Position numbers and translations under genes: made by a program. A stretch of DNA of 62,860 nucleotides, counting the filler. It is 5 parts of 5 records of this genome, joined end to end, with 100 filler letters (N's around TTAATTAATTAA, not from the genome) between each part and the next. Parts side by side here need not be neighbours in the genome. Positions count along the whole stretch, not along the records: positions 45,156 to 53,953 come from SRR20825006_254; 4 more parts are not named here. One strand, given 5' to 3'. Below are positions 11,477-54,053 of this stretch, one piece after another. Position 1 is the first letter of the stretch. Every line of letters begins with the position of its first letter. The notes beneath the pieces are model-generated. The model had not been told where the DNA came from. It saw only the letters and a list, made by a program, of their open reading frames with translations, and ran no database searches.

Positions 11477-11574
11477 TCCTGATCCATATCAAGGCGAGGT
11501 GGGGGCATGCGCGGCACTATGGCTGCGGGATTTGATCCCGCTGCGTATGCTTCCGGTTGTCTCCGGAAACAGTT

Positions 11575-11601
11575 AAGGCCCCGTTTTCGGGGCCTTTTTT
11601 T
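11575..11601 (+). terminator. Intrinsic terminator
   Basis: AAGGCCCCG-TTTT-CGGGGCCTTTTTTT. Confidence 0.85.
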
Positions 11602-11619
11602 GCTGTTCTGCGGTCGCAA

Positions 11620-11670
11620 CACGCTTCACGCAGCACGCTGTGATGCCAGGTGCGTGTCGCGTGAAGCGTC
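11620..11670. repeat. Inverted heptamer repeat hairpin
   Basis: CACGCTT CACGCAG CACGCTG ... GTGCGTG TCGCGTG AAGCGTC. Confidence 0.65.
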
Positions 11671-11675
11671 TCCCT

Positions 11676-13682
11676 TTACCAATGGATCCCTTTGAACAAC
11701 CGTGAGAAAGCGGCCTGTTCGCGGCGAATCTTCTTCGGTGTCCCTTCTTTGCCCCCCAGGGCGGCAGAGGAATCAGAGAATAGTTTGTACCCGGTATTCA
11801 TGATGGTTTCGGTGACCCTGGGGGTGATGAAGTGCATCACCTGTCCCATGACACCAAGATTGGTGGCGATGCGTTTGGGTTGACGCACAATGGCGTCGCA
11901 GATCATGTCCGCCGCCTGGGTGGGGCTGATGGTTGGCACGTGGTTGTAGATCTTGGTGGGCGCGATCATCGGTGTGCGCACCAGCGGCATGTTGATAGTA
12001 GTAAAACGAATTCCCTCGTGGGCCAGCTCGCTGGCGGCGCAACGGGTGAATGCATCCAGTGCGGCTTTGGACGCCACGTAGGCGGAAAAGCGGGGCGCAT
12101 TGGTGAGCACGCCGATGCTGGAAATATTGATCACGTGGCCGCTGCCATTCTCGATCATGCTGGGCATCAGTTGCATGATCAGCCGTAGGGCGCCGAAGTA
12201 ATTGAGTTGCATGGTGCGTTCGTAATCGTGGAAACGGTCAAACGCATGCACCACGGAACGGCGAATGGAGCGCCCGGCGTTGTTCACCAGAATATCCACA
12301 TGGCCATGGTCGGCAAGAACCTGTTGCACCAGGTTGTCCACGTCGGTCAGGTCGGAGACATCACAGCTATAGGCCTGTGCGGTGCCGCCCAGCTGGTCGA
12401 TCTCGTGCAGGGTTTCTTCCAGTTTTTCGGCAGTACGAGCAATAACCAGTACCGTGGCACCGGCGCGAGCCAGCTTCAGCGCGCTGGCCTTGCCGATGCC
12501 GGATGTGGCACCGGTGACCATGACGACTTTGCCTTCCACTCGTTCGGGCAAGGTGGGCAGCGGTTGCAATTCATCCTTGCGCTCGCCGCGGTCCGGGTCC
12601 AGGTGGTTTTCCCAGAAGTCCCACAGTTGCTGGATATAGCTTTCCAGCTCGGGGGCCGCGATGCCGGTGCCTTCCAGGGCCGCTTTGGCGCGGCTGTTGT
12701 CGTACTCGGTGGGGAAGGTGAGGAACTTCATGGCCGAGGGCGGAATGTCCAGATTGTCCAGGGCGGCATTGACCAGCAGGTTGGGGGTCATGGCACTGAC
12801 GCCTTTGCGAACAAAGCCGGGCACGACGTCGAATAGCCGGTTTTCCAGCTTCAGGGCCATGCGCGGGGCCTGGGCTGCACCGGCGATAATGTCCATGATT
12901 TCGCCCAGGCTGTAGCTGCGGTCTGCGGTCAGGTGGAAGCATTGGCCGTCGTGGTCAGGCTGGCGGGCAATGTGATCCAGGGCATCCGCCACGAAATCCA
13001 CCGGCACCACGTTGAAGTGGCCGCCCTCCACACCGATCAGAGGCACCCAGTTGGGCAGCACGTCTTTCAGCTTCTGGATGAACTTGAACAGGTAGTAGGG
13101 ACCGTCCACCTTGTCCATGGCGCCGGTTTCGGAGTGGCCGACGACCATGGCAGGGCGGTAGATACGCCAGGGGATTTTGCTTTCCTGGCGCACCAGCGCT
13201 TCGGATTCGTGCTTGGTCAGCAGGTAGGCGTCATCCAGCCCGGTGGCTTCCTCGAACATGTCTTCGCTAAAGGTGCCGTCGTAAAGGCCGGCGGCGGCGA
13301 TGGAAGAGACATGATGAAAGTGACCGGCCTGAATTTTTTCAGCCAGTTTCAGCGTTTGTCGCGTGCCTTCGATGTTGGTGTAGCGCTGGGTGTTTTCATC
13401 GGCGGTGAGATCATAAATGGCGGCCAGATGGAAGAAATGATCGATTTGTCCGTTCAGGTCATCCTGATCACGCTTGCTCACGCCCAGCAGCTTTTCGTTG
13501 ATGTCGCCATGAATGGCCACCAAACGGTCGGCATCCACACCAAGCCGGCTGCGCAGGGCATCCAGCTTGTACTCGGAGCCACAGCGAACCAGGGCAAAAA
13601 CACGCGCATCGTCGCGTTTCAACAGGCGGCCAACCAGAAAACGGCCGATAAACCCGGTGGCACCGGTAACGAAATAGTTCAT
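11676..13682 (-). CDS. Two-domain fatty acyl-CoA reductase (SDR fusion, wax-ester pathway type)
   Basis: N-terminal MNYFVTGATGFIG extended SDR plus C-terminal VTGATSGIG, NNAGRSIRR, YVASKAALD; start corrected to ATG 13682. Confidence 0.88.
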   Translation of the reverse strand: MNYFVTGATGFIGRFLVGRLLKRDDARVFALVRCGSEYKLDALRSRLGVDADRLVAIHGDINEKLLGVSKRDQDDLNGQIDHFFHLAAIYDLTADENTQRYTNIEGTRQTLKLAEKIQAGHFHHVSSIAAAGLYDGTFSEDMFEEATGLDDAYLLTKHESEALVRQESKIPWRIYRPAMVVGHSETGAMDKVDGPYYLFKFIQKLKDVLPNWVPLIGVEGGHFNVVPVDFVADALDHIARQPDHDGQCFHLTADRSYSLGEIMDIIAGAAQAPRMALKLENRLFDVVPGFVRKGVSAMTPNLLVNAALDNLDIPPSAMKFLTFPTEYDNSRAKAALEGTGIAAPELESYIQQLWDFWENHLDPDRGERKDELQPLPTLPERVEGKVVMVTGATSGIGKASALKLARAGATVLVIARTAEKLEETLHEIDQLGGTAQAYSCDVSDLTDVDNLVQQVLADHGHVDILVNNAGRSIRRSVVHAFDRFHDYERTMQLNYFGALRLIMQLMPSMIENGSGHVINISSIGVLTNAPRFSAYVASKAALDAFTRCAASELAHEGIRFTTINMPLVRTPMIAPTKIYNHVPTISPTQAADMICDAIVRQPKRIATNLGVMGQVMHFITPRVTETIMNTGYKLFSDSSAALGGKEGTPKKIRREQAAFSRLFKGIHW

Positions 13683-27838: not shown

Positions 27839-27938
27839 NNNNNNNNNNNNNNNNNNNNNNNNNNNNNNNNNNNNNNNNNNNNTTAATTAATTAANNNNNN
27901 NNNNNNNNNNNNNNNNNNNNNNNNNNNNNNNNNNNNNN
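27839..27938. other. Artificial contig linker
   Basis: N-run + TTAATTAATTAA + N-run. Confidence 0.99.
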
Positions 27939-36470: not shown

Positions 36471-36570
36471 NNNNNNNNNNNNNNNNNNNNNNNNNNNNNN
36501 NNNNNNNNNNNNNNTTAATTAATTAANNNNNNNNNNNNNNNNNNNNNNNNNNNNNNNNNNNNNNNNNNNN
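36471..36570. other. Artificial contig linker
   Basis: N-run + TTAATTAATTAA + N-run. Confidence 0.99.
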
Positions 36571-38318: not shown

Positions 38319-38588
38319 TTAGCGACGCAGACCCAGCTTTTCGATCAGCTGGAGGTAACGGGTGCGGTCTTTCTTGGCCAGGTAGTCCAGCAGCTTACGA
38401 CGCTGGTTTACCATGCGGATCAGACCACGACGGCTGTGGTGATCCTTCTTGTGGCCTTTGAAGTGATCCTGCAGACCATTGATGTTGGCGCTCAGCAGAG
38501 CCACCTGAACTTCCGGGGAACCGGTGTCGTTCTCTTTGCGGCCATGCTCTTTCAGGATCTCAGCTTTCTGTTCAGCGGTTAACGCCAT
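38319..38588 (-). CDS. rpsO: 30S ribosomal protein S15
   Basis: [28 protein letters not shown]. Confidence 0.99.
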
Positions 38589-38669
38589 GTTGCTTCTCCA
38601 ATATGCTCAATTAAGGTCACGGCCAGCCATGCATATTTATAGCTGCCGTCATTAATCAGGCCAGTCTCC

Positions 38670-45005: not shown

Positions 45006-45055
<50 letters not shown>

Positions 45056-45155
45056 NNNNNNNNNNNNNNNNNNNNNNNNNNNNNNNNNNNNNNNNNNNNT
45101 TAATTAATTAANNNNNNNNNNNNNNNNNNNNNNNNNNNNNNNNNNNNNNNNNNNN
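45056..45155. other. Artificial contig linker
   Basis: N-run + TTAATTAATTAA + N-run. Confidence 0.99.
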
Positions 45156-45940
45156 AGGTTCATCTTGGCCAGTTTGTAGGTGGTGCTGGTTTGCTCCTGA
45201 CCGTAGATGGAGATGTCTTTCTTGTTGCCCTGATGGTTGTCGATAAACTTAACGGACTGCACGAACATGCCGCCCGAGCCACAACAAGGGTCGTAGATTT
45301 TGCCGTGGTAAGGTTCGATCATTTCCGCCAGCAGGTTAACCACGCACTTGGGAGTATAGAACTCGCCCCCGCCCTTGCCTTCGGTGGCGGCAAACTTGCC
45401 CAGGAAGTACTCATACACCCGCCCGACAATATCCAGCTCGCTGGCGGCCTGCTGCTCCGGGCTGGCCATATCGCTGCGCACCAGGGTGTCGATATTGTTA
45501 ATGGAGTCGATCAGCGCCGACAGCTTGCTCACATCAATACCCAAGCGTGAGAAATAGTTGTCGGGCAAGGCGCCTTTCAGTGCGGGGTTGTTCTTCTCCA
45601 GAGTGTGCAGGGCAGTGTCGATTTTCACCGCGATGTCGTCTTGCTTGGCCTGCTTCTGGATAGATGACCAGCGGGCCGCTTCCGGCAGGTAGAACACGTT
45701 TTTCATGGTGTAGAACTCCACCATGTCCACATAGTCGCCCTGCCCCTCGTCGATAAGCTGCTGCTTGCGCTGTTCGAAGGTGTCACTCACAAACTTGAGG
45801 AAGATCAGGCTGAGCACCACGTGCTTGTACTCAGAGGACTCCACCGTACCGCGCAGCTTGTCGGCGGTGTCCCACAGGGTTTGCTCAAAGCTTTTTTGTT
45901 TAGCGGGGGCTTTCTTCTTGGCGCTTGTCGTCCTGGCCAT
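45156..45940 (-). CDS. hsdM: Type I restriction-modification methyltransferase M subunit (3' truncated)
   Basis: LWDTADKLRG, GRVYEYFLGKFA..EGKGGGEFYTP, IYDPCCGSGGMF, IYGQE. Confidence 0.97.
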
Positions 45941-46247
45941 ACTGCTTCCTTATGCTGCCATATAAGTGTGGCATGGGGTGTTGTGATTAAGCCAAGAATT
46001 GTAGCAGTAATCGTTACTGACTAGGCAACGCTATACGCCACAACCGAACGCTCCCAGCTGCACCACCCCACCCTGAGGCGTGCAGCGCCCAGTGCCCCAA
46101 GTCGGGAGTGACGAATGAAGCCGGTGAAGGCCAGGCAGCGACGGTGCGGCGGAGCCGCCCTAGCTGCACTGGCCAAGCCTGCTGAGTGATGAGCGAGCGG
46201 CGCTGGGAGCACGGCGGCGAGGCACGCCGCTATTAATAAACCAAGAG

Positions 46248-46321
46248 ATTTAACATAGGACTGATTATGTGGCGAACGCAGACAGTGCTCGCACTGCACA
46301 TAATCCCGTCTTATGTTTAAC
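46248..46321. other. Inverted pair of dif-like (XerC/XerD) sites
   Basis: ATTTAACATAG-GACTGA-TTATGTGGCGA (46248-46275) and ACTGCACATAA-TCCCGTC-TTATGTTTAAC (46293-46321); compare E. coli dif GGTGCGCATAA-TGTATA-TTATGTTAAAT. Confidence 0.65.
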
Positions 46322-46342
46322 CTCGCAGGCCATTATTTGTGT

Positions 46343-46392
46343 AAAAAAAGAGACTCCAGATACACGCCTGAGCGGCGGTATCTGGAGTCTCT
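46343..46392 (-). terminator. Terminator of radC
   Basis: 15-bp stem AGAGACTCCAGATAC/GTATCTGGAGTCTCT with a T-run on the minus strand. Confidence 0.8.
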
Positions 46393-46402
46393 GATGAGTG
46401 GT

Positions 46403-46894
46403 TTATAAGCGCCCTTCTTGAGCTAGGGAGCAACAGCCCGTGTCACCCACCACGATATGGTCAAGTACTCGCACATCGACTACACCGAGGGCTTCTCTGA
46501 GCTTACGGGTGATACGGATGTCGGCATCGCTGGGGTCAACTTTTCCTGATGGATGATTGTGAACCAGTATCACTGCTGCCGCATTAAGCTCAAGAGAGCG
46601 ACGTACCACTACGCGTGGGTGAACGCTGGCACCATCTATGGTGCCCCGGAACAGGCGCTCAAAGGCAATCATGCAGTGCTGGTTGTCGAGAAAGATGCAG
46701 CAGAATTGCTCGTCCCTTTCTGCTGAAACCTGGAGGCGGCAGTAGTCTTTAACAACTTCAGCTGAGGTGAGTTGCTCTCCTTTCTTCAGTCGGTCACCGA
46801 GTATTTCAATCGCTGCTTCGACGACCTGGCGTTGATTGTGAGATAAGTCGGCGAAGTATTGAGGGGCCTTGGTTTCATTGAGTTCGTTGATCAC
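46403..46894 (-). CDS. radC: RadC-like JAB/MPN domain protein (short mobile-element type)
   Basis: EQFCCIFLDNQH, LFRGTIDGASVHPR, HNHPSG..PSDADIRIT, LDHIVVG; RBS AAAGGAG. Confidence 0.95.
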   Translation of the reverse strand: MINELNETKAPQYFADLSHNQRQVVEAAIEILGDRLKKGEQLTSAEVVKDYCRLQVSAERDEQFCCIFLDNQHCMIAFERLFRGTIDGASVHPRVVVRRSLELNAAAVILVHNHPSGKVDPSDADIRITRKLREALGVVDVRVLDHIVVGDTGCCSLAQEGRL

Positions 46895-46935
46895 GGTAGC
46901 TCTCCTTTGCGGTACGTACTGCGCTGAATTGCGCG

Positions 46936-46956
46936 TCCTTATTTGCGCGTGAGCGC
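46936..46956 (-). promoter_or_regulatory. Hairpin promoter-like motif, copy 1 (upstream of radC)
   Basis: Plus (template) strand TCC-TTATTT-GCGC-GTGA-GCGC; near-identical to copy 2. Confidence 0.55.
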
Positions 46957-47008
46957 CAAGACCGTCGTGTGCGAGCTGGCTACAGGTGGAGACTGTCTGA
47001 GATGTGTA

Positions 47009-47028
47009 GAAAAAAGCCCCGAAGGGCT
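47009..47028 (-). terminator. Terminator of the 58-aa gene
   Basis: Minus strand AGCCC-TTCG-GGGCTTTTTT directly after the TAA. Confidence 0.85.
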
Positions 47029-47204
47029 TAGATAGATGTGAGTTCTTTTAATCGCGCTTGACGCTTAACAGTGGCCTCGTCGGCGAAGCTTGCCGCTTCT
47101 TCCTCGGCCACTCGGGCGAGGTGTTCAAACGCTGTGGCACCACGCTCAGCTGCACTGCACAGGGTGGTAAGGGTTGCCCATATCTGAGCGATAAAGTTCC
47201 GCAT
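47028..47204 (-). CDS. 58-aa helical phage-like hypothetical protein (not in ORF track)
   Basis: MRNFIAQIWATLTTLCSAAERGATAFEHLARVAEEEAASFADEATVKRQARLKELTSI; RBS AAGGAG 7 nt upstream; own terminator. Confidence 0.82.
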   Translation of the reverse strand: MRNFIAQIWATLTTLCSAAERGATAFEHLARVAEEEAASFADEATVKRQARLKELTSI

Positions 47205-47226
47205 TGGTATTCTCCTTGGTTTGGTT

Positions 47227-47247
47227 TCCTTTTGTGCGCGCGAGCGC
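47227..47247 (-). promoter_or_regulatory. Hairpin promoter-like motif, copy 2 (upstream of 58-aa gene)
   Basis: Plus (template) strand TCC-TTTTGT-GCGC-GCGA-GCGC. Confidence 0.55.
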
Positions 47248-47363
47248 TATGAGGTGAAGAGCAAGACTAGAGGGGGGGTACCTCAAAAACCTGTGTTTTG
47301 AGGAGCGTTACTAGGGCCGTAGGCAGGTGAGCAATTTCTGAGAACCCGCGAGCCGAGTTAGGC

Positions 47364-47532
47364 TATCGCCTGATATCGCCGTTTTGCTTGTTTAGCGGTG
47401 AGTTAGAATGTCGGTAGTGAGGTACCAAGCTTGTCTTGAAACCAGAAAGCACAGGCCAGCATGGGTGTAGATAGAATATCGGTGTATATCGGTTGAGTGC
47501 TCGATAGGGTTAGCCTATCGGTGTGTATCGGT
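47364..47532 (+). repeat. Three pairs of 10-bp-phased TATCG repeats
   Basis: TATCGCC at 47364/47374; TATCGGT at 47477/47487 and 47516/47526. Confidence 0.75.
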
Positions 47533-48037
47533 ATGCACTAAAACGCTGACCGCAGAGCCACTCTGCCCCCTACGAATACATAGCGCACCAAAATAAAAAT
47601 CCCTGTAAATCAATAACCTACACGCTGCCTATATATAAGGGGGACTCCAGCCCCTCCCTTCCGGGTGGCCGGTCCTATCCCTCCGGGCTAGGAACGTCCT
47701 TTGGCACACTCGATGAGTGCCCCCACGGGGCACCATCTCCTGACCATCAAGGTCATTCCCTTCCCTCTCCCTCTGAAGCCAGTCACACCTAGCCGACACG
47801 CAGAGTGCCCCAAGGGTTCGCGCAGCGAAGCCCGCCGGGAGCACGGATTGCGTGGAGGTTTGGTGTGGGAGGAGAATATATTTATAAATAAAGCAGATTT
47901 TTCTACGTACTGAGGTTCGTCACGCTACCTCCGTGACTGGCGCGGCGTCCGCAAGCGGAGCCGCTTGTCACTCGTAGCGTTCCTCACCGCCTAGGGCAGG
48001 CCAGAGAAAGCGGAAACATGGCATTACCCTACCTGGC

Positions 48038-48222
48038 AACTGCTACAATACAACATATCTTTAAATTCAATGAGTTACAGGACACGCAAGTGCGACAGAT
48101 AATGCGACAGGCCCACGACAAGTTATTGGTGTTGTACTCATGTCGAGCTTTTGTTGTGGACTTGTCGCACTTTGGCTTCCCGCTATCCCTTACATAGCGG
48201 GAGTTGTAGCGATGTAGCAGTT
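48038..48222. repeat. Nested inverted repeats downstream of DUF3631 (putative replication origin)
   Basis: AACTGCTACA/TGTAGCAGTT, AAGTGCGACA/TGTCGCACTT, CCACGACAA/TTGTTGTGG, TCCCGCTA/TAGCGGGA. Confidence 0.7.
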
Positions 48223-48225
48223 CAA

Positions 48226-49557
48226 TCAGTCAGTGAGATACCGGGCGAAGGCATCATCAAACTGGTCCCGTTCATAGCCCCTCCGAACTCCGTCAGCGAA
48301 ACGTATGTCTTTCGTCTTGATATTGAACGCCCCGAGAAGGCGTGCAATTGCGTGGGCTGTGATGTTTCCTCCACCACGAAAGGATCGCCATGGCTTAGTA
48401 TCGTCAGCACACAGTGCAGTTCTTAATTCACTTGAGCTAATACGATCCCCATTATGCCCCCGCCAAATTTCCTGTATGTCCATTAACAGGCAGCCTTTGG
48501 TGTCCGGCTCAGGTATGTCCGTGATGTCCCGATAAGCCCGATCGCAGCGAGTTAACCAGTCGCCTCCAATGACCTCAGCAACCTGAAACAGAGCGTGCCA
48601 GTTATCGATTGCCCTATCGCTGCCAATATTGGGAGGTTGCACCCGACACTGCTCAACTGCCGCCCGATTATCTAGACACCAACGAAGGATCTTTTGTCGA
48701 GATGGCTTGCATGTTTCAACCAAGTTATTTGGGGGGCTCTGCACCCGCTCAGTAGCAAGCTTGCGGCGAAGATTAATAACTATACTGCGATCCATGATGG
48801 TCGGTGCTAAGTCGCCTATCGACCCTAGCGCCATAGGCATCCAGGCGCTGTAGCCACCGGCATCATGACTGTCACCACTGCACCGCAGAATCACAGAGCC
48901 GCTTCGCGTATGGCCTGCATTCAATATGTTGATGAGTGGTGAGTCACCAGATCGAATTAAAGAGTCTGCTTCATCCAAAAATAGCGTTGGTTGGAAGCTC
49001 TCCGTCATCCGAAAGATCACCGCTGGAGATACATTTGATGACATCACGCAGTCCCTCGCGAAAGCACTTACGACCTCCATTGTGGTCGTTTTGCCGCATC
49101 GCATCATAGGGCTCCGGAAGAAGAGCTTTCCAAACACCCTGAACGAGTTGATGAGGTAACTGGCAAACAGCCACAGGACGATGGCATCAATTTCTCTTTG
49201 TGTTAAGACACAGTGCCTCTGGATAAAATCAGCAATTTCATCAGCCAATTTGGTCCCATCAACTTTAGCTGGCCAGGCATTGAGGTCTTCAGGTATCTGT
49301 CGAACGACTGGCGCTAGTTCGTCAGCACTGGCTTTCTCGCTAGAGCATTGCTCGTTGCCTTTCCTTGTACCTGTAGATTCTAAGCCTGGGGTTATGGGCT
49401 CTGGAGGCGGAATATCCGCCTCCAATGTGTTACTTTCACTTGTGGGGGTATCACTCATAACGGTCTTATCCTCGTTCAAAATTAGGGGCTGTTTCTGCTG
49501 CCAGGCGGGCAGCCCCTTCTCATTTTCTGGTTTCAGTTTGTCTGCGTGCATCGGCAT
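48226..49557 (-). CDS. DUF3631-domain P-loop replication protein
   Basis: SPMMRCGKTT Walker-A-like, PTLFLDEAD Walker B, TIMDRSIVINLRRK, DRAIDNW, C-terminal RGYERDQFDDAFARYL. Confidence 0.85.
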   Translation of the reverse strand: MPMHADKLKPENEKGLPAWQQKQPLILNEDKTVMSDTPTSESNTLEADIPPPEPITPGLESTGTRKGNEQCSSEKASADELAPVVRQIPEDLNAWPAKVDGTKLADEIADFIQRHCVLTQREIDAIVLWLFASYLINSFRVFGKLFFRSPMMRCGKTTTMEVVSAFARDCVMSSNVSPAVIFRMTESFQPTLFLDEADSLIRSGDSPLINILNAGHTRSGSVILRCSGDSHDAGGYSAWMPMALGSIGDLAPTIMDRSIVINLRRKLATERVQSPPNNLVETCKPSRQKILRWCLDNRAAVEQCRVQPPNIGSDRAIDNWHALFQVAEVIGGDWLTRCDRAYRDITDIPEPDTKGCLLMDIQEIWRGHNGDRISSSELRTALCADDTKPWRSFRGGGNITAHAIARLLGAFNIKTKDIRFADGVRRGYERDQFDDAFARYLTD

Positions 49558-49862
49558 TTAACCTCCCTTAAGAAATAGCGAGCCACGTTGTAGTGAGGGT
49601 GCCCGTCGCTGTCCAAAACAGTGCCGTATGTGACCGCTATGCATAACCCTCGCTCTCGTAATGCTTTGATTTTTTGGGGAGGCGCATGAACGCCTCCCTC
49701 ATGCAAATCGAAGGTTGTGACACCTCGATCACCAGCTTCAACAAGCATCGCGTATGCAAAGGCTTGCGCCCTTGGCAACCTGTCCCTATGGACGAGATAA
49801 GGGCATGACACAGTTAAGATTTTTGGCACAGCTGTAGTCGCGAGATAGGGAGACGTGATCAT
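49533..49862 (-). CDS. Winged HTH protein (HTH_39-like)
   Basis: VTTFDLHEGGVHAPPQKIKALRERG...DSDGHPHYNVARYFL; overlaps the alpA stop and DUF3631 start. Confidence 0.7.
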   Translation of the reverse strand: MITSPYLATTAVPKILTVSCPYLVHRDRLPRAQAFAYAMLVEAGDRGVTTFDLHEGGVHAPPQKIKALRERGLCIAVTYGTVLDSDGHPHYNVARYFLREVKCRCTQTN

Positions 49863-50080
49863 TGAGCCACCTCCTGGCCGCGTGCAGCGATACGTGATTC
49901 AATCCAATCGATTACCTCTTCCTCTACCCATCCCTTACTAGAGCCACCTGGCACTAGAGAAACAGGTTTGGGAAATTGGCCTTTCGATACCATGTGGTAA
50001 ACGTGAGACTTAGAGATTCCGGTAAGGTCACAGACTCGCTTCATGCGGAGTAAGCGTGGAGAGGTAGATGTTAGACTCAT
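49859..50080 (-). CDS. alpA: AlpA-family regulator/excisionase
   Basis: RLLRMKRVCDLTGISKSHVYHMVSKGQFPKPV..GWVEEEVIDWIESR. Confidence 0.95.
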   Translation of the reverse strand: MSLTSTSPRLLRMKRVCDLTGISKSHVYHMVSKGQFPKPVSLVPGGSSKGWVEEEVIDWIESRIAARGQEVAQ

Positions 50081-50253
50081 AAATAGTCACCTATATTTGG
50101 TTAAAAAAACGTCCATTGAGGTCCATAGACTGAACAGGACAACTATATGCTGAGCCAATCAAAAAGCGTTTTCTGAGTTTTTTTGCCTTTTGGAGCAAAA
50201 ATATTTACGGCAGATATCTATGAAAAACAGGCGGGGTTCTGTTACGGAGCTGA

Positions 50254-51465
50254 CTATTCGTCCCGGAGCTTATCTAGGTAGTCAGCCCACTCTTGCATCA
50301 TCTTGATGCGCTCGTCCATCAGCTGGGCTTTGTTGTAGGTAGCGCGAATGCGGTCTTTGTTGACGTGGGCCAACTGCAGCTCTATCGCATCGGGTGAGTA
50401 CCCCATCTCGTTGAGAAATGTGCTCGCCGTATGACGAAAGCCGTGGCTGGTCATGAAACCAGTGCCATAGGGTTTGTTGGTTTTGGGGTTAATAAGCCGC
50501 TTAATAGCCATAGTCGTGGTGTTCTCGCTCATTGGCTTACCATGACCGTGGCGAGTAACAAATACATAGGGGTGCTTACCAGTTAGGGGTTTCAACGCCT
50601 TCAGTATGGTTATTGCCTGGCGAGCCAATGGCACCTGCAGCTCCCTGCCGGCTTTCATTTCGTGTTTGGGGATCGTCAACATCGCGGAATCAAAGTCGAT
50701 ATACTCCCAACGCATATACCTTATGTTGAATGGCCGAAGAAATAGCAACGGCATCAACTGCAGAGCATAGCTAGTGACCGGGCTCTGGCGAGCCGCCGGC
50801 TGATGTATTTGCTTGATCAAGTTCGCTAGGTCCTCTTTTTCAGTAATATGCCCAAAGTTGCCTTTTGTTCGGTGATCAGGCTTTGGCAGTAATTCTGTGA
50901 GGCCCTGTGCGGGGTTGTTCTCTATGACACCGAGTATCAGCAGCTCGTTGAACACATGCCTGAGAATGCCGGCCATGCGTTTTGCTGTCTCACGAGCACC
51001 TCTTTCAGCAATCGGGGTGAGAATCTGCAACAAGTCTCGGGTGCTGTATTGGTCAACACCTTTTTTATCCAAAGAGGGGTAGATATTGGTTTCTAGACGC
51101 TGCACAAGATCAATGCGGGTTGTCTCGGCATAGTTCTGTTTTTCGATCCAGAGCTTGGCAAAATCACTGAAGCGCTGTTGGCTGGCCTGCTGCTTAGCCA
51201 CCCTCTCCCTTTTAGCTTCGGTAGGGTTAAGCCCTTCTGCAACCATCTTGCGCGCCTGCAAGTGGGCCTCACGTGCTTCTGCTAAGGAGTACTCAGGGAA
51301 TGCGCCGATGGTGTACGTCGCCCTCTTCCCGCCCAAGCGATAGTCATACTTCCAGGACTTGGCGCCTGAAGGGCGGACACTCAAGTAAAGGCCCCCACTA
51401 TCGGTCATCTTGTATGGCTTGCTTTGAGCTTTTGCGTTGCGCACTGCAGTAGCTGTTAATGGCAT
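50254..51465 (-). CDS. Tyrosine integrase, P4-like
   Basis: MPLTATAVRNAK..PYKMTDSGGLYL arm-binding domain; LFLRP, SHGFRHTAST, LAH, YNKA catalytic residues; start corrected to ATG 51465. Confidence 0.97.
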   Translation of the reverse strand: MPLTATAVRNAKAQSKPYKMTDSGGLYLSVRPSGAKSWKYDYRLGGKRATYTIGAFPEYSLAEAREAHLQARKMVAEGLNPTEAKRERVAKQQASQQRFSDFAKLWIEKQNYAETTRIDLVQRLETNIYPSLDKKGVDQYSTRDLLQILTPIAERGARETAKRMAGILRHVFNELLILGVIENNPAQGLTELLPKPDHRTKGNFGHITEKEDLANLIKQIHQPAARQSPVTSYALQLMPLLFLRPFNIRYMRWEYIDFDSAMLTIPKHEMKAGRELQVPLARQAITILKALKPLTGKHPYVFVTRHGHGKPMSENTTTMAIKRLINPKTNKPYGTGFMTSHGFRHTASTFLNEMGYSPDAIELQLAHVNKDRIRATYNKAQLMDERIKMMQEWADYLDKLRDE

Positions 51466-51502
51466 GAGCGTATGAATCCCGTCTTCACCGCCACACACTG
51501 GA

Positions 51503-51560
51503 ACCGTCAATGAGACCGTCACCGGAACCGTCAGGCGTGTCGGATGCTATAAAACCGTCC
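51503..51560 (+). repeat. Integrase arm-type binding repeats
   Basis: ACCGTCA at 51503, 51515, 51527 (12-bp period) and ACCGTCC at 51554. Confidence 0.7.
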
Positions 51561-51652
51561 GGACAGTATAAGACAGTAACACATTGTTTTACATATACTT
51601 TATTGAGTATTTTACGTCCTATATTTTCCGAGGAAATATGTGTTTTGACGTT

Positions 51653-51666
51653 CTCCCTCACCGCCA
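51653..51666 (+). other. att site: duplicated 3' end of tRNA-Ser
   Basis: CTCCCTCACCGCCA matches the end of gammaproteobacterial tRNA-Ser(GGA) (..CCCTCACCGCCA); no full tRNA upstream; followed by a terminator. Confidence 0.75.
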
Positions 51667-51710
51667 TAAATAAAAAACCCGGCCTTGAGCCGGGTTTTTT
51701 ATTTATGGCG
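51662..51710 (+). terminator. 22-bp perfect-stem terminator (native tRNA terminator)
   Basis: CGCCATAAATAAAAAACCCGGC-CTTGA-GCCGGGTTTTTTATTTATGGCG. Confidence 0.85.
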
Positions 51711-51891: not shown

Positions 51892-53953
51892 TCAAGACTT
51901 GGGCACTGGCTCCAATTTGCGACGGAAGCTGCCCGAGATACGCACGACATTGTCGCCACCGGGCATGATTTGCTCACCGTCGATAATCAGCGCTGTGGCC
52001 TTATAGGTGCCGGTCACATAACCATTGTCATCGGTAAGAATTTCTACCTGACAGGCTGCACCATCCAGCGTCAGCTCTGCCTTGGCGTCACGATCATACT
52101 GCGTAGTCTGGTACAGCGCGCCAATCGCCTGCAGATTCACCTGCACCGCGCGATTGTCGGCACTGTTTACATCGGCGCAGTTATACACACCCACTGCACG
52201 CGGCATATTGATCACATCCAACTTGAGGCCTTTGCGGCGATCCAGGGTGCGATAACCGTACTGACTGTAAGAACTCTCATAGCTGTAAAGCTGATCGAAG
52301 GGGTCATAGATAAATTTGAAACGATCGCCCGTCTGCCAATGGCCGCTGCCGTCTTCAACACGCATGGTAATGCCGACTTCGTCGGGCGCCAGTTCGCCTT
52401 CGTCACCGCTGTCATTATCAGGGCGCGTCAGCACAACGGCATAGTTACGGAATTTGCCACTGATTTCCAAACGGCGATCGTCACCCTCCAATAAGTTTTC
52501 CTGGGCAAACAACGTCGCGGTGTAGCTAGCGTCATAGAATTTGCCACCACGCGACACGGTTACGATTTCACACTCACCACCGGCATCATCTGAGGTATAG
52601 CGTTGCTCCAGCAAATAGGTACCGACTTTTACCCACATGTGCATAGCGCCAGCACGATTTCGGTACTCGGTGCCACAGTGGTAGGTTGCATCCCCAGCAA
52701 AGCCACCCTGTGGCTGGGTGCCCGCATGCAGGCTCATGATATCGGAGGCATTGCCGGTAAACGGAGGCGTGCCGTCATCCGGGCTGGTACCGCCGAGACC
52801 AACAGGGTTATCCAACAGGAAGTGCTGATCTGAACCCAGTTCATAACTTGGATTATCGGCCAGTTCGATACTGCCAAAATAGTCCCGAGGCAAGTCACCC
52901 TCAAGTGTTCCTGGTACACCCTCGTGGTCATATACGCGGAACGGCACATTTTCAAGCTGAATAGCGTAGTCGTCCTTCTCCAGTGTGGCCGCAAGAATAA
53001 CGCCTTGAATACCCCCCAACTCGCTGACGTAGTCAGTGCGTAGCCTACAGTCGCTGGCCGTGTAATCGCCGCGATTAGCTGGCGCTCCGGTAACGGCATT
53101 CATTGACAGCACCATCTGTAGCTGATCGTCGCAGATTTGCTCGCCCAGAACATGAGGAATATTCAGATACATGGCCGCAGGCACTACGCCTTCGTACTCC
53201 GTGGTATCGATGTTGTTACGGGTATCGACATTAAACCGCAGCTGCCGAACACCACCCAACGTGGTATACACGCTGGCATAATCCAACAAATAGCGATAAT
53301 TACTGCCTGCAAACTTCAAGTAAGCGCCGTTCTTACCATTCAGAGAATCGTAAACCGGATTGTCGAGTTCGCCCGCGACACCACCGCCGCCGGTCTCGCC
53401 GCCGGTTTCACCGCCGCCGCTATTTTCGATCGTCGCCTTAAAGTAGCCATTGCTCACTACGCGACGAGGCTCCTCGCCCAAGAAATTCCCGGAGAAGTAA
53501 CCCTCGTAGACAGGGCCGGCCTGCACCACCTTAATCACGCAGTCGCCATTGTTCGAAGCCAGTCCTGACTGATCGAGATCATCGGCATTGATGTACTGCA
53601 GTACCGTGTCGTGGCCGTTATCGTCGCAGGAATAGGTGCCTATTGTTGCCGGCACGTGCACTCGCCACTTCTCGCGTCGCTCACTATCCAGCCCCTCGAG
53701 ATAAACCAGCCCGTTGCCGTTGTTACTTCTTAGGACATCGACAACATCGGTGAAGGTATAGCTCACTCCATCGATATCGCCAGTGAAACCATCGCCAGTG
53801 AAGCGGCCTTTGCCTTGATTATCGACTTCCGGGTCGGTTTGGCCGCCGGTTTCCCCGCCAGTCTCACCACCGGTTTCTCCACCAGACTCGCCTCCGGTAT
53901 CTCCACCAGACTCGCCTCCGTTATCTCCGCCAGTCTCTCCTCCGGTTTCTCCG
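51892..53953 (-). CDS. Large extracellular-type protein with GGET linkers and four Cys-pair beta domains (5' truncated)
   Basis: Frame is open from the contig end through a GETGGETGGDNGGESGG repeat into ORF 51892-53766. Confidence 0.85.
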
Positions 53954-54053
53954 NNNNNNNNNNNNNNNNNNNNNNNNNNNNNNNNNNNNNNNNNNNNTTA
54001 ATTAATTAANNNNNNNNNNNNNNNNNNNNNNNNNNNNNNNNNNNNNNNNNNNN
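53954..54053. other. Artificial contig linker
   Basis: N-run + TTAATTAATTAA + N-run. Confidence 0.99.

Follow-up and report, generated by a model that had tools for sequence, protein, structure and literature searches.

Satellite P4 has promoters that answer to a transcription factor encoded by its helper P2, and it borrows the packaging site of that helper; a cos site and a sigma-70 activator serve here, rather than a virion-borne RNA polymerase. N4-like phages are common in the sea, are used against Pseudomonas, and depend for entry on a polymerase carried in the virion. According to published accounts, transcription by the virion polymerase pulls N4 DNA into the cell (PMC3715699), the Rep proteins of SaPIs (pathogenicity islands found in Staphylococcus aureus) are self-loading initiator-helicases with iterons immediately downstream of rep, flanking an AT-rich centre in opposite orientations (PMC9371898), the VEIMEs (integrative mobile elements encapsidated in virions) are packaged as concatemers in full-size heads (PMC9618062), and the helper of PICMI115, a minimalist chromosomal island inducible by phages (PICMI), has a genome of ~49 kb (PMC10803314). 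Here we analysed a stretch of 62,860 nt (the window, meaning this whole stretch), made of 5 contigs spaced by four N44-TTAATTAATTAA-N44 linkers (27839-27938, 36471-36570, 45056-45155 and 53954-54053), so that neighbourhood across these points reflects assembly order, not biology. On its 8,798-nt contig SRR20825006_254 (45156-53953) sits an integrated island of a marine bacterium, with a module resembling the genome ends of N4-like phages. On balance, and with moderate confidence, we read it as the visible 6.5 kb of an island similar to the phage-inducible chromosomal islands (PICIs), integrated at tRNA-Ser(GGA), carrying an N4-like terminal-repeat module and mobilised by an N4-like phage.

As it combines its own excision and replication genes with an N4-like genome-end module, the island is a strong candidate for a phage satellite, whose helper family would be new. 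The module has the order block A, 28-nt spacer, poly-C run, small GC hairpin, gp01-family gene and terminator, and is followed by a second copy of the hairpin before radC, the radC terminator and type I restriction-modification (R-M) cargo, with the following features given in the direction of the minus strand:

47307-47321, minus strand: block A (TACGGCCCTAGTAAC), counterpart of the sequence abutting the start of the terminal repeat in PEV2
47279-47306, minus strand: spacer of 28 nt between block A and the poly-C run
47272-47278, minus strand: poly-C run (C7)
47227-47247, minus strand: hairpin motif 1, GCGC-TCGC-GCGC followed by ACAAAAGGA, 43 nt before the 58-aa open reading frame (ORF)
47028-47204, minus strand: 58-aa ORF, assigned by profile to the gp01 family of N4-like phages
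47014-47029, minus strand: intrinsic terminator belonging to the 58-aa gene, with CTACACA after it
46936-46956, minus strand: hairpin motif 2, GCGC-TCAC-GCGC followed by AAATAAGGA, 62 nt before radC
46403-46894, minus strand: RadC-like JAB-domain protein (Pfam RadC, E 5e-43)
46349-46392: radC terminator, a perfect 15-nt inverted repeat with a T-run
45156-45940, minus strand: HsdM type I methyltransferase, N-terminal 261 aa (Pfam HsdM_N and N6_Mtase; PADLOC MTase_I, E 5e-77)

The 58-aa gene is kept between the origin region and radC in three related loci (L036, L042 and L045), with 33-41% identity between the proteins. A word-indexed protein search with the window protein returned one near-identical protein only, a protein atlas search gave no usable match, and the link to N4-like phages emerged solely through the family profile and intermediate sequences. 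The profile matched 357 cluster representatives at E<=1e-3, all unnamed, and phrog_6483 was matched weakly by the window protein (E 8e-4) and by its L036 homologue. Scanning IMG/VR with the family alignment yielded 212 pattern stretches, from which we kept every locus confirmed by tblastn with the 58-aa family, 6 in all (35-50% identity). Three of the 6 lie in uncultured-phage records of 74,119, 61,618 and 68,059 nt that each contain one giant ORF (3,479, 3,440 and 3,029 residues respectively); the two giant ORFs tested both score as virion RNA polymerase (phrog_2206, E 0), and all three records also hold a T7-like RNA polymerase of ~410-428 residues. One of the IMG/VR phage homologues in turn matched 55 records of a phage collection, 53 from phages of Pseudomonas and 2 from Vibrio phage phi50-12. 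The match in PEV2 (Schitoviridae, Litunavirus) is gp01, at 200-454, which according to a note in the record lies in the terminal repeat and is transcribed in early infection, and the match in phi50-12 (Schitoviridae) is gp101, which lies outermost and precedes small early genes and the two RNAPII subunits. Aligning the island profile with PEV2 gp01 using hhalign gave a probability of 97.5% (E 6e-12). By these comparisons the 58-aa protein is a member of the gp01 family, the first early gene inside the terminal repeats of N4-like phages, and the island gene is the first gene behind the boundary-like element, as gp01 is behind the genome end. Past the homologous gene, a T-run with (CT)ACACA..ACA was matched by pattern in 3/4 islands, the window not being among them, and in 3/7 phage loci; by eye, (CT)ACACA after the terminator is visible in the window, L126, L127 and PEV2. 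The gp01-family gene of phi50-12 (NC_055824.1, 67606-67848) is noted as 'site-specific integrase', an annotation to which the 80-aa family protein gives no support.

Upstream of this gene, the resemblance extends to the genome boundary itself. In PEV2 the right copy of the terminal repeat begins immediately after GCAGTACTT / GTACTTGTGATTGCAGTACTT, and on the left 28 nt separate the record's end from a poly-C run; the genome ends of LUZ7 were determined by sequencing (PMC3715699). All four islands and 5 of the 7 phage loci share a block with AGTA(A/C)(C/T)T or a near variant at its end, then 27-29 nt, then poly-C; of the other two phage loci, L130 runs into its contig end 26 nt short of the poly-C, and L127 is without the boundary element. 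A poly-C run of 6-11 stands at the equivalent place in all four islands and in 6/7 phage loci, and only three C or G runs of at least 7 occur in the window. One related metagenome contig has a poly-C of 11 instead of 7 (four extra letters, at 47271), inside this range. Upstream of poly-C, ungapped identity between islands and phages was 30.7%, compared to 25.3% (standard deviation 1.6) for shuffled sequences, with 0/2000 shuffles reaching the observed value; block A was aligned over 4 islands and 5 phage loci. Searching IMG/VR with a strict block A/poly-C pattern gave 2 matches, a 72,697-nt record of the length of PEV2 and L151, the latter with no open gp01-like frame. The proposal of the sequence-only reading that the island carries cis-signals of N4-like phages was thus upheld in that a boundary block, a fixed spacer of 27-29 nt, a poly-C run and a small hairpin are common to islands and phages. 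Of the noncoding block, whose conservation among relatives it proposed to test, block A, spacer and poly-C are present in 4/4 islands; blastn of the block against all loci gave short weak matches only.

These boundary elements also bear on a different function for the module, namely that the island is a defence island in which the N4-like early signals act as a sensor, the virion polymerase switching on the gp01 look-alike and radC, or as a decoy for the polymerase, and which in either case interferes with the phage and moves by other means than packaging by it. The cargo here (type I R-M) and in L042, L045 and L063 is defence-like, the gp01 look-alike could compete with the phage protein, and the visible part is without a packaging gene, all of which would suit a sensor or decoy; such a device needs a promoter alone, yet block A, the 27-29 nt spacer and poly-C are kept in all four islands, these elements sit at and outside the repeat boundary in PEV2, and the backbone with its own replicon is satellite-like. 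We therefore regard a sensor or decoy as unlikely.

The satellite reading is further informed by the hairpins. The motif GCGCTCNCGCGCANANAAGGA occurs exactly twice in the window, 47227-47247 and 46936-46956, both on the minus strand and 43 and 62 nt before the start codons of the 58-aa ORF and radC, with a chance expectation of 0.11 and two copies in 1/100 shuffles. The claim that two monocistronic genes share a hairpin motif and have their own terminators (47014-47029 and 46349-46392) thereby stands. Each island has its own version of the motif before both the small gene and radC, the common core being a small GC hairpin. Hairpins with T..C loops precede the start codon by 43-68 nt in the islands and by 47-115 nt in the phages; the PEV2 hairpin, read from its sequence, is AGCC-TTC-GGCT and lies 68 nt before gp01.

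Early promoters of N4 have a stem of 5-7 bp and a 3-nt loop with, on the template, a 5'-G, a central purine and a 3'-A (PMC4496689), and hairpins with stems of 4-5 nt and 3-nt loops are predicted before genes 1, 12 and 13 of LUZ7 and LIT1/PEV2 (PMC3715699). In LUZ7, early promoters that were mapped combine a stem of at least 4 bp with a 3-nt loop and start at a G lying 13-14 nt from the centre of the hairpin, and the middle promoters have loops of 3-4 nt (PMC9163698). The loops of L036, L045 and the phage loci are TCC or TTC on the coding strand, and thus GGA or GAA on the template, as in the N4 type. Both window copies have GCGC/GCGC stems of 4 bp, within the GC-rich range of 4-7 bp, and loops of 4 nt (template GCGA and GTGA) in which the 5' G and 3' A are kept, and the loop of L042 is also 4 nt (template GGAA). 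In both copies the GG of a conserved AAGGA lies, as measured from the sequence, 12.5-13.5 nt from the hairpin centre. By sequence, the window agrees with the N4 type in the 4-bp stem, the closing pair and the distance to a putative start G, and departs from it in the 4-nt length of its loops.

A further account takes the island for a PICI-like or 'hitcher' island of the ordinary kind, in which recombination with a phage left the N4-like stretch behind as passive residue. Its helper, if it has one, would be a phage unrelated to the N4-like ones, and AlpA or the helix-turn-helix (HTH) protein would use the hairpins as operators or common promoter elements. The SatelliteFinder authors count as ambiguous an int-alpA-rep element that has three of the five core genes of a PICI (PMC10085698), similar intY-alpA-RadC-defence islands are transduced by a jumbo phage (PMC12595487), and the window hairpins depart from the 3-nt-loop type. 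What renders this account improbable is that the synteny of rep, noncoding block, gp01-like gene and radC recurs in four islands, with small proteins 33-41% identical to that of the window, and that each island duplicates its own motif version before both genes, a combination unlike a decaying remnant.

The backbone that would carry this module for an N4-like phage satellite comprises the following features, again in minus-strand order:

50254-51522, minus strand: tyrosine integrase (Pfam Arm-DNA-bind_3, E 5e-24; Phage_int_M, 2e-15; Phage_integrase, PF00589, 5e-20; phrog_1 integrase)
49859-50080, minus strand: AlpA-type excisionase/regulator (Pfam Phage_AlpA, PF05930, E 4.6e-14)
49533-49862, minus strand: HTH_39 winged-helix protein, overlapping both neighbouring genes (Pfam E 8.6e-5, barely over the curated cut-off)
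48226-49557, minus strand: DUF3631 protein (Pfam DUF3631, PF12307, E 4e-30)
48042-48218: putative cognate origin, six GC(T/G)ACA (GCKACA) iterons, three per orientation, 8 nt from the rep stop codon

The order int-alpA-HTH-DUF3631-58-aa ORF-radC-hsdM, all on the minus strand, was borne out by Pfam, the 58-aa ORF being without a Pfam family. Homologues of the HTH_39 protein occupy the equivalent position in L034, L036, L043, L044 and L050. The DUF3631 protein (443 aa) has a Walker A (CGKT) and a Walker B (LDEAD) motif and no primase domain, and PF12307 is its sole Pfam match at E<=0.01. Its AlphaFold model (pLDDT 81, the first 72 residues predicted disordered) has as best fold match in the PDB the SaPI1 Rep1-DNA structure 7pds, deposited as PriRep1 (E 4e-8, TM 0.37), followed by MCM, NrS-1, vaccinia D5 and AAV Rep40; searching PDB sequences with the helicase gave no match. 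Based on the fold matches of this model, the DUF3631 protein is predicted to be an SF3-type replicative initiator-helicase, folding like the self-loading Rep helicase of SaPI satellites. Six GCKACA matches fall within 177 nt behind the gene, out of 74 in the whole window, and the interval 48042-48218 fits the SaPI-type Rep/ori layout in the position and orientation of its iterons, which makes it a putative cognate origin. With its Pfam genes, a SaPI Rep as best fold match and inverted iterons behind rep, the int-alpA-replicase core was rightly taken for a PICI-like backbone.

A 15,235-nt seawater-metagenome contig carries a related island that has ~97% identity to the window on both sides of 47988-49895, where 1,757 other letters stand. 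Swapped together are the HTH gene, rep, its proximal iterons and the last part of alpA, and a second metagenome run has identical breakpoints, so the replication module is exchanged as one unit.

Relatives of the DUF3631 protein reach 57% identity (Spongiibacter nanhainus), and many are fused to Toprim or prim-pol. They are present in 10/400 genomes of the class (31-38% identity, with the unpublished genomes G337 and G349 counted in) and in 2/24 genomes of the genus. A contig scan with the single DUF3631 protein found 2 distant loci only; with a profile of its relatives, we retrieved 205 metagenome stretches and kept 80 loci, many of them too short to show neighbours. Among these 80, alpA was found in 36 and int in 29, upstream of the DUF3631 gene, and radC downstream of rep in 6. 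In the longer loci the cargo is defence-like, including a type I R subunit (L042), an OLD-family ATPase with a UvrD helicase (L045), GmrSD with a reverse transcriptase (L063) and SNF2 helicases (L045 and L070). The type I R-M system of the window is represented on the contig by the first 261 aa of HsdM only. Two distant members of the DUF3631 family are recognisable, classic satellites: L087 has the order int-alpA-Toprim/DUF3631-terS, and L030, an IMG/VR contig of 11,053 nt whose ends overlap by 119 nt, carries Toprim and DUF3631 (split across its ends), an HK97-type capsid gene, integrase, MerR and HTH_17, and looks like a capsid-forming PICI-like element with a DUF3631 replicase.

Within the visible 6.5 kb, Pfam and PHROGs agree with the sequence-only reading that there is no terS, capsid or sid/psu gene and no relaxase, and the same two databases gave no packaging or structural gene in the 4/4 radC-subfamily islands examined. 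The lack of a relaxase and of a coupling protein, which extends from the visible part to 4 related islands over 9-13 kb, together with a replicase whose closest fold is a satellite Rep, leaves very little probability for an integrative element moved by conjugation, in which a helper plasmid or integrative and conjugative element (ICE) would act on a transfer origin in the noncoding block or beyond the contig, even though the left part of the island does lie beyond the contig and large structured noncoding regions can harbour transfer origins.

The right end of the candidate satellite is defined by the following two features:

51654-51667, plus strand: att core (attR), CTCCCTCACCGCCA, a 14-nt exact match to the tRNA-Ser(GGA) 3' end in the nearest genome, G001
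51662-51710: terminator hairpin with perfect 22-nt arms, directly after the tRNA-end copy on the chromosomal side

The island had been said to end in a tRNA-Ser att; the 14-nt copy of the tRNA-Ser(GGA) 3' end is indeed there, but the tRNA gene itself is absent (ARAGORN found 0 in the whole window, and Rfam none). The three loci with the closest integrases, L034 (69% identity), L063 (59%) and L059 (56%), match the att layout of the window: in each, ~130-150 nt upstream of int, AACG(T/C)C comes after a tRNA 3' end in reverse complement, which is that of tRNA-Ser in L034 and L063 and of tRNA-Arg in L059. This shared layout and the att core place the right end of the island at 51667. L059 has a complete tRNA-Arg at the far end of a tandem island pair, and by the same arrangement the integrase of the window should lie at the tRNA-distal end, with the tRNA-Ser gene expected leftward, past the contig end. 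The two islands of L059 (1-12922) share one tRNA-Arg(ACG) and are separated by a 45-nt tRNA copy, the second having its own integrase and a YagK/YfjJ-type protein. In more distant relatives a tRNA or tmRNA lies directly upstream of int, and direct repeats bound islands of ~10-14 kb. The terminator hairpin is a generic repeat of the genus and essentially the sole match of the right flank to same-genus genomes; loose read ends at 51668-51702 arise from this repeated terminator.

On the left, the contig end at 45156 truncates hsdM and cuts the island, so the label 'minimalist' given to it lacks support, and the related 15,235-nt contig has 8.7 kb of further, dissimilar sequence past the common part.

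From these components we infer packaging, helper dependence and virion-polymerase transcription of the island, by the following course. Upon infection by an N4-like phage, Int and AlpA would excise the island and Rep would replicate it from the iterons; the packaging machinery of the phage would then recognise the block A/poly-C boundary-like element and load phage heads with the DNA of the island. Once injected along with it into the next cell, the virion RNA polymerase would start at the hairpin promoters and, as entry of N4 DNA is driven by transcription, the module would double as an entry signal for the island, which would then integrate at tRNA-Ser, where its cargo would protect the host. 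A bolder form of this proposal, to which we give tentative credence only, is that these islands are the first satellites of Schitoviridae, encoding no packaging protein and using the terminal-repeat look-alike both as the packaging cut or recognition site and as a set of entry promoters.

Several results weigh against mobilisation by an N4-like phage. The first concern the comparison with phages: neither the window 58-aa protein (tblastn, no match at E<=1) nor the L126 homologue found anything in the 50,697-record phage collection, and blastn of 46895-48225 against the same collection gave no match. Of the proposed comparisons of block and 58-aa protein with phages, direct searches of the phage collection came back empty, and the gp01 family was reached through a profile and intermediate sequences. 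DNA similarity between islands and phages upstream of the gene is modest and confined mainly to block A and poly-C, the block A pattern was defined after the sequences had been seen, and the PEV2 genome ends are those deposited in its record. As to the promoters, the 4-nt loops of the window differ from the 3-nt loops of N4-type early promoters (N4 and LUZ7), the exact 13-nt core of the window motif was found in 0/114 loci, the full 21-nt motif had 3 single chance-level matches in IMG/VR, and the 41 loci from a scan of IMG/VR for poly-C with the window hairpin contained neither a gene of the gp01 family nor any island protein. These IMG/VR motif scans found no cognate helper phage with the exact motif of the window; a phage sharing the motif or the 58-aa gene had been anticipated, and while the gene family is present in N4-like phages, the exact motif was in none found. 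Finally, packaging genes are absent from the visible part, the sole terminal-overlap contig among the fetched loci is the distant L030, with no sign of island circles, concatemers or encapsidation, and the complete island, perhaps of 12-15 kb or larger, may hold genes that alter the picture.

If the proposal is true, a parasite satisfies its packaging and entry needs by DNA signals alone, and answers to a cis-acting entry requirement to which no known satellite is subject. It would point to the packaging or terminus signal of N4-like phages (block A, spacer and poly-C), offer a handle on gp01 function, and assign a helper family to one group of marine int-alpA-rep defence islands. In a literature search of limited coverage, no published satellite of N4-like phages turned up.

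The noncoding parts of the island hold three further features:

47797-47854, minus strand: long hairpin with loop motif TCGCTGCGC
47360-47532: CCGATA-type direct repeats, four exact copies and variants
46249-46321: inverted dif-like pair (46249-46273 on the minus strand, 46295-46321 on the plus strand), inside a conserved noncoding stretch at the backbone-cargo junction

The first two lie in the block described as gene-free and ~1 kb long, which measures 1,021 nt (47205-48225) and has no ORF with a Pfam match. The TCGCTGCGC loop motif also occurs in different stems in L036 and in PEV2, where it lies just upstream of the right terminal repeat. A search for the motif TCGCTGCGCGA gave real cases only in the window and L036/L037, too few for a covariation test. 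CCGATA repeats are also seen in L036 (~11560-11700), though the rep-proximal iterons of the two islands differ (GCKACA and GCAACA), and the repeats may bind a second conserved factor; scanning IMG/VR for CCGATA pairs gave 3 matches. A run of GGTGTA/ATCGGTGTA iterons in L122/L124 was considered as a relative and rejected, the adjacent 460-aa ORF being unrelated to DUF3631. In the same loci, at ~1990-2030, a run GGTGTAGA...ATCGGTGTATATCGGTGTA resembles window positions 47466-47495 beyond the searched 17-mer.

The dif-like pair exists as it had been described, one arm pair differing from the genus dif consensus at 3/19 specified positions; a dif scan at 6 mismatches gave noise. The noncoding stretch after radC (46040-46330) is 76% identical over 124 nt to L042 (4749-4870; E 2e-14), where the counterpart is less dif-like and the inverted repeat is retained. 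Between the two, the arms show compensatory changes by eye (DNA fold z -3.9), pointing to a hairpin or cruciform under selection where backbone and cargo meet, rather than to two independent Xer sites.

DNA of the contig was absent from the nearest genome and 41 relatives, the generic terminator excepted. To the right of the island, a 624-aa ORF (51892-53766) is without a Pfam family and had no DNA-level match in 24 genomes of the same genus; it is 99.8% identical in one marine metagenome and also present in a contig from an RNA library. After it, an ORF made of 12-nt repeats (53818-53949) continues into the contig end. Parts of the island had no read cover in run X3 and RNA run X14, which is a sign of neither absence nor silence. 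The preceding contig ends in a cut tRNA-fMet (45010-45055, minus strand, read by eye), beside genes that look like rimP-nusA-infB, names we assume from the order of that operon; an S15 leader is located at 38532-38650.

We finally compared the island with described systems. Like the PICIs of Gram-negative and Gram-positive bacteria, SaPIs included, it has an integrase, an AlpA-type regulator, a self-loading Rep with iterons behind its gene, site-specific integration and no lysis or tail genes, and among the distant relatives with DUF3631, terS is present in L087 and a capsid gene in L030. Unlike them, it has no visible terS, capsid-morphogenesis or hijacking gene, its Rep is without a primase domain, and its presumed packaging and entry signal is a look-alike of a phage terminal repeat. 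Of the PICI core, the visible 6.5 kb contain Int, AlpA and, as replicase, a DUF3631 protein with a SaPI-Rep-like fold, with no small terminase or capsid-morphogenesis genes found; in the PICI scheme of SatelliteFinder, whose authors leave such elements aside for being ambiguous, this would amount to at most 3/5 core genes ('Type C') (PMC10085698). PICMIs, from Vibrionaceae, share with it the marine setting, the int-alpA-replication core and the lack of capsid-remodelling and packaging genes, and have defence cargo and a virulent helper (PMC10803314). The PICMI model calls for an integrase (PF00589 or serine recombinase) and AlpA (PF05930 or PF12728), both of which the island has, and for a DUF3987 (PF13148)/DUF5906 (PF19263) primase and insertion beside fis (PF02954), where the island has DUF3631 and lies at tRNA-Ser(GGA) (PMC10803314). 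VEIMEs, compared by description, are likewise marine integrative elements with a tyrosine integrase, AlpA, a primase/helicase and no major capsid genes, and differ in that the available part of their description reports neither a phage-end module nor a helper family or cis-signal assigned to them (PMC9618062). The Pseudomonas tmRNA islands I23, I44 and I55 resemble the island in having a tyrosine integrase, AlpA, RadC, an HTH protein, defence genes, no transfer genes and a 14-bp flanking direct repeat derived from the end of the target RNA gene, but they are larger (~18 kb common region), have a jumbo-phage helper, and no phage-end module is reported in the part of the account at hand (PMC12595487). 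The left terminal repeat of N4-like phages (LIT1/PEV2, LUZ7 and phi50-12) has the same order of boundary block, poly-C, hairpin promoter, gp01-family gene and terminator, whereas the island has one chromosomal copy of it, with 4-nt loops and with neither a virion RNA polymerase nor any other phage gene.

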